A stretch of 63,090 nucleotides of DNA, filler included, from Rhabdomonas costata (taxonomy: Eukaryota), in NCBI GenBank assembly GCA_019059605.1. It is 44 parts of 44 records of this genome, joined end to end, with 100 filler letters (N's around TTAATTAATTAA, not from the genome) between each part and the next. Parts side by side here need not be neighbours in the genome. Positions count along the whole stretch, not along the records: positions 17,242 to 18,578 come from JAHMHO010018988.1; 43 more parts are not named here. The stretch is one strand, 5' to 3'. Made by a program: the position numbers and the translations under genes. The stretch's first letter is position 1; every line of letters starts with the position of its first letter. Shown here one piece after another: positions 8,625-18,987 of the stretch. Below the pieces are notes generated by a model that saw only the letters and a program-made list of their open reading frames with translations, was not told the DNA's origin and searched no databases.

Positions 8625-9792
8625 TGGTGGTCAATGCCGCCAAGGCTCCAGCGGCAAGGATTTTGCGAGAGCCCCTGGTGAGCTGCAGACCCTCTCGAGA
8701 TTTCAGCACAGGCAGTGCTGAGTTCGGGTAGTGAGAGATCCGCTGGTTGAGCAACGCTCGGTCGATAAAGTCGGCAACGGTCCATGACGGGTCGACGTCC
8801 AAAATCGCAGGGGCGCCTTGAGAACCAGCAAAAAAAAAAAAAGCAAGCATTCCCTTTCTCTCTGCGAAGGAATGAAAAAGGGTGCGATGTGAGGGGTTTA
8901 GGCGCGTTTCCGTTACCACCGGAGATTTTACTCACGATGGTGAAGTTGCTCTGGACTGCGTTGATTACTGATTATTGTTCGATTGAGTGCCTTGCCTTCC
9001 TTTCTGATGCAAAATGGAAGCAGAAATTCCCTCCCCGATGAGGGCTCGATCACCGGCTATTCCCTTTGGTTGCTCGATTACCGATAACCGTGGCAGCGGC
9101 GATTATAAAGCAAATTCAAAACACAATTTCCCTTGCCAGTTGCTGATACGATTCATCGATCAGTCGATTATCAATCTTATGGGAGATATCAGTCGGTTTT
9201 ACACTCCCAAACCCTCAAAATCATCTGAGTGCAGCTCAGTTTCGCTTCCCTGGATACAGACCCATCGATTACATTGGGATAACTCGTGCCCAGGTGACAT
9301 TGCTGGCACTTGAGAATTCGGCAGGCTATGATTAAACGCTCCAAAATATTGCAGCTCGAAGCCATTACAAAAACGCCAAAGTCATGTGATAGACAACGAA
9401 CGCTTTCAGGCTCTGGAAGGGGGCCAAAAACACAACCAAAAACGTCATCGGGAAAGAAACAAAGCCGGCACCAACCCCAACTGCAAATGCAGAAACTATA
9501 AACCATTTGGATTTCTACTTACTTCTTACACAGCCAGCTGAAACAACGAGGAGAGAGAGGGACGGAGGGGAAATAACAAGAAAAGGGCGAAAAAGAGGGA
9601 GCTGCGGCGTGCGGCGGACGGTTGCGTGAAACCAGCTTGCGGATCGTCGGGATCAACCGCGAGCGGGTAAGTGGCGGAGTACATCCCCTGATGAGCGGAG
9701 CTCCCGTTGAAGACTGTGAAATTGTTTATGGCACGGTTGCAGCCCGTTGCCAACTTCAGAGCCTCATTCACGCAGGCAGCCGCAACAATGGC
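8625..9792 (-). CDS. UBA3: NEDD8-activating enzyme E1 catalytic subunit-like, C-terminal part, 2 exons, partial
   Basis: Exon 9792-9633 AIVAAACVNEALKLATGCNRAINNFTVFNG...GMYSATY joins in phase 1 to exon 8816-contig end (APAILDVDPSWTVADFIDRAL..., E2-binding region). Confidence 0.75.
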
Positions 9793-11493
9793 CTGCGTGC
9801 CAGCATCCCACGCACACATCCACAAAGAGAACACGCTGGGTACCGTATTTTTCTCCCAATGGGACATCCCCAATCCCAAGCATCGGAGACGGGAGGCCCT
9901 CTGTCGAGACAAAGCCTGCGGGGCTGAAGACCTTGCATTCGGTAATTTTCAAGGAGNNNNNNNNNNNNNNNNNNNNNNNNNNNNNNNNNNNNNNNNNNNN
10001 TTAATTAATTAANNNNNNNNNNNNNNNNNNNNNNNNNNNNNNNNNNNNNNNNNNNNGTGGTGGGTGTGTTTGGGTTTTTTGTTACCCCTTGAGTAGTGTC
10101 ATTGTTCCAGTTCCTTGCCATCTTCGTTCGGGGGTCACTTTTTATTGAGTCCAATCCTAAAGTCTGAAGGGTGCTGAGTTGTGGTTTCTGGGGGAGCAGC
10201 TCAACTCCAAACAAGAGTTCTGCGTTTTCTGTTCTTCGGTTGTCTCTTACAGCTTCGGAACGAAGTTGGCCTCCGTGAAACGGCAGCAAAGTCCGCGAAT
10301 GGGAGGCTAACTTGTGTGTGTGTGTCTGTATGTGAAGGCAGTGAAGGGATGTTCTTCGTCGCCCTCTGCATTCCAGATTCTGATTCCTGTGCTACTGCCT
10401 TTTCCGTCTCTGAGCCGCGAAACGGAAATTATTGCCCTCCTGCTGCGGCCCTTCTTCTGGCTGGCTTACCGCTTCTGTGTATTGGCCGCTGCGCTGCTGT
10501 GTTTACGCGAACCCTTGGCGACGATGTATCCCGTGTCCTGTTTTCAGAGCCCGAGAGAAAAGGAAGGGAGCTGGAGTGGAAATCGGGCGGACCCGCCTGT
10601 GAATTAGTCCGTGGCCCTGGGACTCTGGGTGCATAATTTTGTCCAGCGAAATTGAGTCGATAGCCGGAGGTCGAGCGTGAGCGATCATGATTGATTGATG
10701 ACTGATGATTGATGGTCAGGGAGAGTGTTCTGCAGTCTGACGTATTGGAGTTGGAGGTGCTCAACGGTGGAGCAGTGGCTATAGTCGCGACGAAATTATG
10801 GTCAGAAATCGTTTCTGTGTCTCTCTCAGTCGCCTGGGTTTACCCATCCGAAAGAAAAGCTCCAAGGAAGGAGTGTGGAGTCGCAGAGACCTTAGCAGCA
10901 ATGGAGCAATGCAGATAGCCGCTAAAAAAAGAGCAGCAGCGGACAAAAGGCCCGGGACCCGTGGGGCTGAAGGGAGGTTACCAGATGTGGAACGTTCGGC
11001 GGTGAGCCGGTTCCGGTTCCCCACGGCACCTCTCGCGAGCACTCGTGGCCAACAGCGCGTGCGCCCTTCAGTCCACTGTGGTCACCATCAACCAAGCAAC
11101 CAGTCAACCAAGCAACAGCGAGCGCGCAATGCGCCCAACACACCCACACCCACACACACGCCGCCACCTCCTTGAAGAAAATTACGGTAGTTTACACCGT
11201 AATGAGGGGCTTTTTTTTTTTCGCAAAATGCACGCTGAAATGGCTGAGGACATCAATGGAGTACTTACCTTACAGTACGGTATAATCGATGGCATTATAT
11301 AGTTTGTGACCACTCCAGGATGAAATGCGCCACATGCGTTCCACTGCTTTTCGGAGTAGCTTAGCTCAGCATTTTGCGAAAAAAAAAAAACCCNNNNNNN
11401 NNNNNNNNNNNNNNNNNNNNNNNNNNNNNNNNNNNNNTTAATTAATTAANNNNNNNNNNNNNNNNNNNNNNNNNNNNNNNNNNNNNNNNNNNN

Positions 11494-14010: not shown

Positions 14011-16216
14011 CTGCACAGGGGTGCGCCATTTCCCCCCCACCATTTCCCGGTTGTACGTGGCAGTGGGTGCCACGAACACACACACACGCACACACACACA
14101 CACACACATTGAAATCGAAGTCACCGACCATCACCATAGCAAATGCAGAGAGCAATCGTCGCACCCCAAGCAACTCATCCACTAGCACACTGCTGTAATA
14201 ATAACCATCATGTGAGTCATCAAATTTGCACACACGAGGGTTGAAGTTGGGTTCCACCCCCCACCCCNNNNNNNNNNNNNNNNNNNNNNNNNNNNNNNNN
14301 NNNNNNNNNNNTTAATTAATTAANNNNNNNNNNNNNNNNNNNNNNNNNNNNNNNNNNNNNNNNNNNNTTTGTGTGTGCGTAGATTATGTCATGCTGTTAT
14401 TATCCGGTGGTGGTCATTAGCAGCGTACTTTATACGATGGTGATAAGGCAGTGGCTGTTTGTGTGTGATTTGTGTGTGGACGTTGTTGGTGATCATAAGG
14501 TGTTAGTGGCAATGTTGGCAACTCATCGAGGGTCCAAAATTCTACTCAGTACAAAGGTGGAGGTGTCACAACCACGTAAACCATTCTTATGTGTTTTGGT
14601 TGTGGTAGTAGTAGCATGGTGTCACATCGTCGCGTCCCACCTTGTTAGTGTCATGGAATCCTCTCCCATTGGCATCGGTGGTACCATACGGTGTGAGTCC
14701 AGTGACTGGGAGTGGATTTTGTGATGCCATTAGTGGTGTCCAACCAAGTCCCCGGGGGACCCGGTGTGTTGGCGGACCCTGACGAATTGCTCCCTCTTCT
14801 TCTGCGCCTGGTTTTGGTCATACTTTACATAGCGCCTGCAACCGTCTTACCACAGCCTCCACGTCAACACCCGCGTTGGACGCCACCACGCGCTGCATGC
14901 ACTCCAATCCCAGGTGCACCAATTTAGCTGCCCACTCCCGAGACCCGGTTGACCGCTCCACACACCTCCCCTGCGCAACAGCTGGCCATTCATGCTGGAC
15001 GACCCTACATTAAGGCGACGCTTCAGGCGACTGGCTTTTCCCTCTCTGCTTCCTGCTCAACAACCGGGTTTATCTGGATTGCTTTGTTGATGCTTTGGTG
15101 GTGCTGGTCACCTTTCATGTGGGATGCACCTGGAATGTGTCATAGTGGGTACAGGATTGCTGGGCACCACTCATTCAACTGGACATCCAGGTGGTCCCTC
15201 TCCAAGAAACCAAGCTCTCGACACTTGCACTGGAGGCAGCGCGAGGCGCACTTCGTCGCCGGAGCTGGAAGTTGCACCACGGCCACCAGGTGCCAGCCAA
15301 CAAAGCTGGCATTCACGGAGACCACTTTGTGGTGTCGGGCGGGTTGCCCAGGAGCGGATAAGCTGCAGGGAGACCAGAGAATCCGTCAGGACCCGCGGCG
15401 GCGGAGGGGAGAAGCGGGAGACCAAGACCAGTGCCACAAGTTCGCACTGGGTGAAGCTGCTGGGGTCCTGGATACGGGCGGAGTGGCAGAGCCCCGATCT
15501 CGGCTGCAGAGCGGCCGCGGGGGCGGGGCATCGTTTAATGGGGCCAGTGAGACTTCGCACTGGTAGCTGGGTTCGTGTAGTAGCTGTGGCCACAGGCTGA
15601 CGCGGGTGGAGGAGCGATTGATGCTCACGCGCCACTTGGTATGGGCGAGGGCTGCCGCCAGGGCCGGAGTGGGCTCCGTCCCTGGCGGCAGCCCTCACCT
15701 AAACNNNNNNNNNNNNNNNNNNNNNNNNNNNNNNNNNNNNNNNNNNNNTTAATTAATTAANNNNNNNNNNNNNNNNNNNNNNNNNNNNNNNNNNNNNNNN
15801 NNNNGTTTGTTGGGTCCCATGCTGTTTTGTTAATCCATTTGCAGGAGGTTGGGCTGACGATGTCTAGGTTGGAAGTCCATGTGCACCGGGGGGAGGAGGG
15901 AGGTGGATATTCCTGGGGAGGGAGAGGAGGAGGTGCATGTGGATCTGCCCGGGCAAGAGGTAAATGTGAGGAGCGACACATGCAGTCATAGTTTCACCCC
16001 CCGACCCTCAATCGATGTTCCAAGGCGCTCCAAGCAGTGTGGATGTTGAAGAAGAGGGCCATTAATTAATTAATATTTAATATTTGTCGCACGGGACAAT
16101 CACCACAAGGTCACTGGGCTCAAGATGAGTTTGAAGGACATCGACGGCTCTATCGGTTCTTGACAAGGGAATCATGAAAAGGCCCTCCAAGTGCAGCTGC
16201 GAAAAGCAGGACTGAG

Positions 16217-16897
16217 TTGGTTGAGCACAGGGGAAAAGCAGCATTCCGTTGCTCCTGCCAAGGTTGTAAACTTCGACTAGCCTGCAGTAATGGGGGGCCC
16301 TTGGTGAAGCTGAAGATAGACCTCAAGACTTGGGCAAAGTCTCTTTTATGTCCATTCAGACGATGCTTGGCATCAAGGCACTCTATTTCGCTTTATCACA
16401 TCCTTTCCGAAGCCGCGAAAAAGCACATGGACAACAACCCACCTACAATTGGTGGCCCCGGTACTGAAGTTGAATGCGACGAGGCGCAGATTGGTAGAAA
16501 GCGCAAAGGTTTCCGAGTCTTTATGTTCGTCTTATGGGTTAGGTAAACCTGCCTCCTTGTTTATATGAAATTGCTTTGGCAATTCGGCCACGACAGCAAC
16601 ATTCTGATGGATATTTGGGGTTGGTGGGACCGCTCCTCTGGGTTACTGTGCGTTTGCCAAGCTTCATCCTGATGGATCACATAGACCAGGACCAGCAGCT
16701 GCTGACGAAGTAACACCCTTCGTATCTAAGTACATTCTACCGGGGGGCCTTCTATGCACCGACTCCGTCGCGTTCGCACTAATGGCAAGGAAGGAATCTG
16801 GAAAGGCTTAAAAACCGCTTGCGCGCTTTGTCGGGGGTGACAAAGGAGCGCCTTCCTCTCCATCTGGCCTTGTTCATCTGGCACCACAACACAAAAG
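16217..16897 (+). mobile_element. Decayed Merlin/ISXO2 (IS1595-family) DDE transposase
   Basis: Ordered motifs across broken frames: IGGPGTEVECDEAQIGRKRKG, DIWGWWDRSSG, PFVSKYILPGGLLCTDS, VRTNGKEGIWKGLK, RGVTKERLPLHLALFIWHHN. Confidence 0.85.
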
Positions 16898-17241
16898 TTC
16901 AGCGTCTGTGCGTGTCTTTGATGAGCTTCTCAAGGTTTTTGCGGCCTCTGTTTGACAGTTTTCCTCTTCTTCTGTGGCTTTCGTCATTGATGTGATCCGA
17001 ATCTCTTACTCCTGTGGCTGCTCTGTTGATGCTTTCTTACGGGTTTCCAGGAAGGAGGGGGTGCACAAGGTATAGTGGTAGGGGTGGGCATGATATACTT
17101 GAAGCACCCCCACCCCTACCACTATACCTTGTGCACACCACNNNNNNNNNNNNNNNNNNNNNNNNNNNNNNNNNNNNNNNNNNNNTTAATTAATTAANNN
17201 NNNNNNNNNNNNNNNNNNNNNNNNNNNNNNNNNNNNNNNNN

Positions 17242-18576
17242 TACTGCATTCCTTAATTGCACAATGGAATTTGATAAATTCTGAGCTGGTTGTGATGATA
17301 ATAAATTATATAATTGATTATTTGCAGTTATTACAGATGTATTTGATGCTACAACATTTTGTAAATTTGCATATAACGTTTGTAAATTAGTTAAACTTGA
17401 AACAATATTTTGTGATTGAGAATCAATGAACGTCTGTAATTTACTAATTAATACAGCATCATCTGTTTCAGAATTTAACGTTTGTTGTAATTGTAATTCA
17501 TTATTATATTCTTGTTGTACAAGTGCAATTACATTATTGAAATAAGATGATGAATTATCAAACAAACTTTTCGTGTAAATTAAATTTGGGTTTTGTAAAC
17601 TATTATTGATAGTTGGTGCAACAGGCGGCACTGGTGTAACTGCTATCATCGAATTCGTGTAATCAGTTATTGCCTGTTTTACAGTATCATCAAACCAAGC
17701 AGCATTAACACACAAACGTACATCATAGCCAGTTAATTGAGATAACCAAGTACTTATTTTAGTTACGTCCGGAACATTCCAAAGAGAAGTATTTGTTGTA
17801 TCAATAGGTATGATCGTATATGTCGGTGTAAATAATGGTTTAACAGTAATAACAAGATTTGTATAAATCTGACCATTACATGATAAACTGAAATTTGAAA
17901 ATAATGAAAAATAATTTGATTTTAACCATGTCGCAAATGATAAATCTATGATTATATAACCATTATAAGCGGAATTAGTTACTGCAATATACGTATATTG
18001 ATTGTTATTTAATAAAGCATAACCAGTCGTTCCTTGTGCAAATTTTACAAGTTTAATTGTTCCATCAGAAGCGGCATCTTGATAAACTAAATTTGGTTGT
18101 TGATTTCCGGATGCATCAGTTGTTGTAGTTAAAATAATAAATGTTTGTAGTGCAGGCGCAATACTTGTAAAATCATTAGCAGTATAAATATTTCCAAGAA
18201 TAGGAACAACTTGAGTAATTTGACCAGTCTGCATATACGTCAGAATTTCTTTTTGTAATTCTCCTGTATAGAAATAAGGTGCATCAGTGAAGAAACGAAT
18301 ATCATAACCAGTTAATGCTGCTAAATAAGTTACGGTATTCAGTTCAGTATCAACAGATGGAACAGAATTCCAAACATTCTTTTCACCATCCCAAAATACA
18401 TTATAACCAGCTGGAACAAAGGAATATCCTCTCTTTTTTGTAACATATACGTAATTAAATGTTCCATTTGATAAAGTAATCGGACAATTTAATAAAACAG
18501 AACCATTTGTTGTTAACCAACTATCAAATGAAGAATGAATATCAAAAAATACAAGACAACTAACATTCGCATATGA
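17242..18576 (-). CDS. Large unknown protein, open across the whole contig (~445 aa, both ends missing); likely non-host origin
   Basis: No stop in frame from 18576 to 17242; strongly AT-rich (roughly 25-30% GC by eye), A/T-ending codons, no introns; two copies of an LTGYD[IV]R-containing unit, then an N/Q/S/L-rich helical tail. Confidence 0.85.
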
Positions 18577-18987
18577 AANNNNNNNNNNNNNNNNNNNNNN
18601 NNNNNNNNNNNNNNNNNNNNNNTTAATTAATTAANNNNNNNNNNNNNNNNNNNNNNNNNNNNNNNNNNNNNNNNNNNNTGTGTTGGGTATGTTTCCTGTC
18701 ATGCAGCCAATAAACCACGCATGTATGGCATTTGTACGTGCTTATTCGCAATGATGCGCGCTACAACATGTTATAATATGAAAAACAGCTGGCCCAGGAT
18801 TGCTTCAGTAATTCATTTCGGCATTATTTAGCCCCAAAGTATCCTTAACGTCTGCCAGACTCGTTTTGTGACGGGGACATTCAAGCGCATTCACAAAACT
18901 CATCAGTTGCACAATTTACGTATGACACTGGCCCACGCACTCAAAAGCAGAGTCAAGAAAAGTGTGCGGTGGGCAAACCGAGCACAC

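Follow-up and report, generated by a model that had tools for sequence, protein, structure and literature searches.

What kind of protein does a strongly AT-rich contig in the assembly of Rhabdomonas costata encode, and how did its gene come to be present in this cell? The contig (G000:C18988) occupies positions 17242–18578 of the window, i.e., the whole 63,090-nt stretch analyzed here, which is a chain of unrelated contigs of ~1337 bp joined by N spacers. An earlier note, made from the sequence alone, had suggested a large, possibly structural protein from a co-amplified giant virus or from an AT-rich symbiont or prey. We propose that the contig represents the central part of a giant-virus gene that codes for two domains and a helical tail, that the product is likely a particle protein, and that the contig likely belongs to a set of insertions in host chromosomes; taken as a whole, we give this reading about an even chance.

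The open frame and its tandem domain

The contig has a GC content of 0.295, which makes it the most AT-rich of the 44 contigs in the window, versus 0.395–0.575 for the remaining 43. Its minus strand reads through 445 codons from 18576 to 17242 with zero stops and a GC3 of 0.14, in agreement with the earlier description of an intronless frame, open across the whole contig, with A/T-ending codons and a composition much more AT-rich than that of the other contigs. Since the earliest ATG, GTG or TTG is codon 115, an ORF track would miss the 114 upstream codons, as had also been pointed out. The contig carries this gene alone, intact and intronless, with neither a host junction nor a lesion, and a walk upstream ends after ~170 nt. 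Within the assembly, the gene start was recovered in sister contigs L003 and L011, but not the final ~28 codons. With about 547 residues in all, the protein is not unusually large, and the word “large” has to be withdrawn; the window copy is 58% identical to the full-length relative P0002. The features of the contig are:

17242..18578, no strand: AT-rich contig G000:C18988, without host DNA (GC 0.295)
17242..18576, minus strand: 445-codon open frame, truncated on either side (codons 74–518 of the ~547-residue gene, in the numbering of sister contig L003)
18217..18576, minus strand: C-terminal two thirds of repeat 1, residues 1–120 (repeat profile E 9e-38, alignment)
18295..18315, minus strand: LTGYDIR motif of repeat 1 (sequence)
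17641..18210, minus strand: complete repeat 2, residues 123–312, a 190-residue alpha/beta domain (structure model)
17716..17736, minus strand: LTGYDVR motif of repeat 2 (sequence)
17587..17640, minus strand: Pro-rich linker of low model confidence, likely flexible (sequence; pLDDT < 50 over residues 388–404 of P0002)
17242..17586, minus strand: helical tail, starting with LIY[TA]KSL[YF] (three long helices predicted, pLDDT 45–68)

We evaluated the internal repeat by local alignment of residues 1–121 with residues 122–312, which gave a score of 81; in 2000 shuffles the mean was 33.8 (sd 6.1, maximum 64), and none reached 81. The repeat reported earlier, with LTGYDIR (18315–18295) and LTGYDVR (17736–17716) spaced 579 nt apart, is thereby confirmed, and the order of Pro-rich linker and helical tail likewise agrees with the low-confidence linker and the three long helices in the model. 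BLASTP self-comparison did not detect the repeat, either in the query or in any of the 18 full-length relatives. The tandem domain of ~193 residues claimed by the note is present in two copies, and its size can be refined: the unit is ~190 residues, the spacing is 193–197, and the protein contains exactly two units. These are ~20% identical to each other and have no strict polar residue in common.

The model of repeat 2 consists of 12 strands and 3 helices (pLDDT 96.8, pTM 0.90). A fold search with this domain matched no solved structure, and no jelly-roll or fiber entry was among the fold matches listed. BFVD contains no match to the family, no PDB sequence matched at E ≤ 1, and no Pfam family did so either, including the capsid families Capsid_NCLDV and Capsid_N. 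The statement that the protein belongs to no recognized family thus stands, as the Pfam, PDB sequence and fold searches yielded no well-characterized domain; as modeled, the repeat domain would have no structural neighbor.

Protein family and possible role

A word-indexed search returned four relatives, and a HMMER scan of 1.84 billion representatives returned 27 at E ≤ 0.001, one of which (P0030) was dropped as a low-complexity false match. The relatives (P0002–P0029, P0031–P0036 and the gene on contig L030) are 24–58% identical to the window protein, with the same domain order and tail motif, and the clade of the window protein comprises 10 rows (SH-aLRT 97, quick tree). Full-length members measure 511–560 residues. 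A repeat profile, built partly from rows that it later scored, finds two ~190-residue units in 17 of the 18 members longer than 500 residues, and a single unit in nine proteins of 339–362 residues from four lineages. All members end in a helical tail of ~140 residues; the number of domains varies and the tail stays, and its motif LIY[TA]KSL[YF] marks the best-conserved stretch of the family. None of the 24 clusters looked up is named beyond “hypothetical protein”, the Atlas has no match for P0002 and P0014, the phage collection holds no relative, and no cultured virus encoding the family was found (BFVD and the phage collection included). Judged by the Pfam, PDB, Atlas, phage and cluster-name searches, the family appears to be undescribed.

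Within the repeats, no column is invariant among 29–30 rows, and positions retained in at least 70% of the rows are mostly aromatic, Pro, Gly or aliphatic; a Y-D-x-R/K motif recurs. Acidic residues outnumber basic ones, the members are rich in Asn, Ser, Thr and Gln, and Lys plus Arg amount to 3.5–9% in 28 of 29 members (11.8% in P0021). No membrane span was found in the family, the hydropathy of every 19-residue window being ≤ 1.86.

We consider it an evenly balanced question whether the protein is a structural component of the virus particle. This reading is based on the absence of an invariant polar residue and of a membrane span, on the acidic composition rich in Asn, Ser, Thr and Gln, and on the combination of variable heads with a conserved tail. 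Head domains on a helical stalk are a common fiber layout. In such a particle protein, the conserved tail would bind a particle partner or other copies of itself, and one or two head domains, acidic and rich in Asn, Ser and Thr, would be displayed by way of the flexible linker. The double jelly-roll capsid, penton and head-plus-stalk fiber proteins of Nucleocytoviricota likewise have domains of similar size in tandem; jelly-roll capsids are all-beta, however, whereas the repeat domain is mixed alpha/beta in the model and matches no capsid family in Pfam. With lower but still considerable probability, the protein could be a host-interaction or virus-factory adaptor, with repeats that bind a protein of the host or the virus and a tail that oligomerizes. 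A patchy spread over two distant virus groups with no fixed gene neighborhood would fit an accessory gene, and the lack of a BFVD match implies that the core capsid architecture can do without it; the very uniform length and acidic, Asn/Ser/Thr-rich make-up of full-length members, as well as the location of the L030 member within a capsid/PolB/VLTF3 cluster, argue weakly in the other direction. A catalytic function of the repeat, of unknown chemistry, would be compatible with a compact, enzyme-sized alpha/beta domain of 190 residues and with the recurring Y-D-x-R/K motif, but is quite unlikely given that the repeats lack both an invariant column and a strict polar residue shared between the two units.

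Viral neighborhoods and the host assembly

Distinct relatives with readable surroundings lie among Nucleocytoviricota hallmark genes in three of three cases, most loosely on L029. On L030 (identical to L034; IMG/VR, 99.9 kb), a 560-residue member and a capsid paralog face each other head-to-head; PolB lies to one side, and VLTF3 and two further capsid genes lie to the other. Contigs L031–L033 represent one virus, where a 526-residue member is found among genes for Topo II, RPB5, an RPB10-like protein and two SNF2-type helicases. The best PDB match of this Topo II has an E value of 7e-114, versus 1e-42 for the human enzyme; the best matches of Topo II and RPB5 are entries that we take to be African swine fever virus proteins, and the virus is therefore asfarvirus-like. 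On L029 (IMG/VR, 377 kb), a one-domain member is located near a Mre11/Rad50-like fusion gene and collagen/BclA genes, with no core hallmark within 10 kb. L029 and L030 are presumably mimivirus-like, as judged by gene content and not by a tree. Two further members reside on contigs of 295 kb and 162 kb. A capsid-gene cluster is seen at only one of the three readable neighborhoods, and none of the three falls into the window protein's own clade in the quick tree.

Two further observations concern L029: a shortened, rearranged tandem paralog lies directly upstream of the intact one-domain gene (9563–10231; profile E 6e-06 and 5e-08), and the same giant-virus contig encodes, at 67–1866, a DnaE-like DNA polymerase III alpha of bacterial type.

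The host assembly comprises 104,289 contigs for 97 Mb and derives from whole-genome-amplified data, with three runs (X1–X3) from one sample. At 855–2839 of L008 (G000:C1946) lies an SSU rRNA gene that is divergent and, with large insertions, very long; by its signatures we take it to be euglenid-like. Nine matches to paraflagellar-rod proteins, in short exon-like pieces, were found in the assembly and none in 14 control genomes; as the paraflagellar rod is described as restricted to Euglenozoa (PMC8061765), the assembly is euglenozoan. A second SSU rRNA fragment with a fold-back end was noted on L009 (G000:C25815). Its sequence is presumably plant-like and thus indicates foreign DNA in the sample. 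The contig next to the AT-rich one in the window holds a broken transposase-like frame (16178–17000, motif VECDEAQIG), which we take to resemble Merlin/IS1595-type elements.

Capsid_NCLDV has five matches in the assembly, of GC 0.23–0.40, and none in the 14 control genomes. Intact capsid genes are found on L014, L016 and L018. On L016 (G000:C6785), two NCLDV capsid paralogs lie in tandem (GC 0.24), whereas L017 (G000:C6302) has a capsid pseudogene with 16 stops beside a fragment that presumably resembles a NifS-type aminotransferase; the fragments L014 and L018 are of higher GC, which suggests that several virus lineages are present. One capsid fragment shares 62% identity with the capsid gene on L030, the contig that we take to be mimivirus-like. 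Among the hallmarks proposed for a search, the capsid was thus recovered, A32 ATPase had no match in the assembly, and the best PolB match (GC 0.49) looks cellular, the other PolB matches being short exon-like pieces.

Based on the three viral neighborhoods and the five capsid matches, we conclude that the gene very probably originates from a giant virus, one of the two sources that had been suggested. For the other, an AT-rich bacterial symbiont or eukaryotic prey, one can point to the low GC, the absence of introns and the foreign, presumably plant-like rDNA, but the readable contexts are viral throughout and one pattern run against 185,579 prokaryote genomes gave nine matches with no confirmed relative, nor is there any in the phages; we give this source hardly any credence.

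Gene copies, a host element and probable integration

In the assembly, the gene has 13 matches on 10 contigs. Lineage A (the window copy, L003 and L004) is intact, with 8–10 mostly silent differences per ~150 codons, dS of 0.03–0.09 and dN/dS of 0.07–0.17 among the intact variants; codon 178 occurs in three states among these copies, and the number of real variants is therefore at least three. Lineage B (L002, L013, L005 and L007) is 82–87% identical to lineage A in DNA, and its dS of 0.44–0.58 and dN/dS of 0.10–0.16 relative to the window copy indicate that it diverged as a working gene. Because synonymous changes predominate among the differences between copies, amplification error is not their source. 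Lineage B is also damaged: L002 and L013 have a 1-nt deletion in common, L002 contains a stop, L007 has deletions of 4 and 31 nt, and frameshifts are common to several contigs and runs. Contig G000:C4128 (L013/L046, 1–600) bears the truncated, frameshifted copy that L002 has as well; beyond it, ~250 nt of unrelated AT-rich sequence lead into host-like DNA that is unique and of 50% GC. L002 and L013 diverge 30 nt upstream of the truncation.

In L005 and L007, the gene adjoins GC-rich DNA that belongs to a high-copy repeat (182 and 158 candidates). The element, with family members on L036, L039, L042 and L055, is ~940 bp long and has 15-bp subterminal inverted repeats (100% complementary in L055), a (GT)n tract and a GC hairpin that ends ~10 nt from its 3' end. 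Twelve copies were measured for the distance of the 3' inverted repeat from the end, which is 40 nt in 11 of them and 33 nt in one. The 5' flank ends in T in four of four copies, and the terminal T of the element is followed by T in 16 of 30 cases, by C in 7 and by G in 7. Its 19-nt terminus occurs 56 times in the assembly (control, 0); 30 termini were fetched, 29 with a readable flank, of which 27 are host-like (GC 0.40–0.61) and two, L007 and L050, AT-rich. Helitron-type Rep genes have 15 matches in the assembly (including L062–L067).

HINEs are described as having 12–15-bp subterminal inverted repeats, the 3' one 38–60 bp from the end, a short palindrome 8–35 bp from the 3' end, and T-rich or TT targets (PMC4067079). 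The subterminal repeats, palindrome and targets found here agree with this, and the element is HINE-like, with the anatomy of a non-autonomous Helentron; it also shares the (GT)n microsatellite of HINE/DINE-1 elements (PMC4067079). According to the same source, the 5' repeat of HINEs lies 2–4 nt inside the element, whereas here it is apparently at the terminus, and HINE/DINE-1 elements are known from mites, flies and other animals, whereas this one is in a euglenozoan genome. A literature search pairing Helentron with Euglena found nothing.

The element meets the gene at two sites, both in sister copies:

17906..17907, minus strand: L007 join site at codon 224, in a broken sister copy and not in the window copy (the exact 3' terminus of the element meets the gene)
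17814..17814, minus strand: L005 join site at codon 255, in a sister copy (internal point of the element, same orientation)

In L007, the element abuts codon 224 with its last base, within a T run. L002, which holds the upstream half, ends at the same site and runs into the 5' region of the element in inverted orientation, as a local fold-back would produce if the 5' end of the element adjoined; the internal join in L005 is what a deletion in a duplicate would produce. On L050 (1–605; G000:C50130), the 3' terminus of the same element directly adjoins AT-rich DNA (GC 0.26) in which a KilA-N gene (E 5.5e-14) is frameshifted, with a short duplication of the junction sequence. No contig with both element ends inside the gene was found.

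In amplified DNA, all joins between gene and host could be chimeras, with nothing integrated. Chimeras are indeed frequent here: adaptor-like ends and fold-back contigs are present, with fold-back chimeras visible in L011 and L012; the key L007 junction is bridged in one of three runs (a contig of X2 spans it without difference, X1 is interrupted precisely at this point, and in X3 the join is inverted); and the last 8 nt of the element match the gene at 6 of 8 positions, an imperfect, weak microhomology. A chimera is nevertheless improbable, as the join falls at the exact terminus of a ~940-bp element and at a T-rich site of the kind that HINEs are described to prefer (PMC4067079), the frameshifts recur across contigs and runs, and X1 and probably X3 contain the L005 join. 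The exact terminus, the three contigs of the decayed lineage (L002, L005 and L007) that each meet one element, and the same terminus beside a second broken viral-type gene in L050 together make a true insertion the better reading. A host element jumping into a free virus could also be the source of the junction. We consider it highly probable that the broken copy L007 resides in the host genome.

For the window copy itself the case is closer. It may derive from a free giant virus that infected the cell or was eaten, in which case only the broken sisters would be relics, carried by the host, of a related virus. In favor of this, the window copy is intact and without introns or a host junction, its CpG is not depleted (o/e 0.86), and intact capsid genes are present. 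Yet at least three intact variants coexist, which is not usual for one infection, although a virus population might supply them, and the capsid genes span GC 0.23–0.40, one of them with 16 stops; we assign the free virus an appreciable but smaller probability. Traits of endogenous elements are seen in the GC of 0.295 versus ~0.5 for the host and in the erosion of L002, L007, L013, the L017 capsid gene and the KilA-N gene beside the element. Because several variants under purifying selection coexist with relics, as in Euglena gracilis, we favor, by a small preference, integration of the window copy as well. The “co-amplified” virus of the earlier note thus remains a giant virus, but that description misses the several intact and several broken copies, one of which abuts an exact host-transposon end. 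With integration, related viruses would have entered a euglenozoan host more than once; the older copy (dS 0.44–0.58 from the window copy) would have decayed and been hit by the HINE-like element, and the younger copies (dS 0.03–0.09 apart) would still be intact.

The endogenous giant viruses reported from E. gracilis have a GC of 25–35% in a host near 50%, and occur as several related copies with duplicated genes and transposon invasion (PMC12455990). The likeness lies in this setting, i.e., a euglenozoan host with AT-rich, duplicated and transposon-invaded viral DNA; the E. gracilis elements are assembled over 86–311 kb and belong to Asfuvirales (PMC12455990), whereas here there are only amplified contigs of ~1 kb. 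What appears to be new is the protein family and its domain, in a setting that resembles these already known elements. We offer one further reading tentatively, as rather unlikely in its entirety: that a new fold defines an unrecognized virion-surface family of mimivirus-like and asfarvirus-like viruses, and that a euglenid with divergent rDNA holds a layered archive in which one virus lineage integrated repeatedly. Helentron-type elements, the first to be noted from Euglenozoa, would have disabled the oldest copies, and the youngest would be intact and possibly reactivatable. If this is true, a natural host would be known for a giant-virus lineage that has not been cultured.
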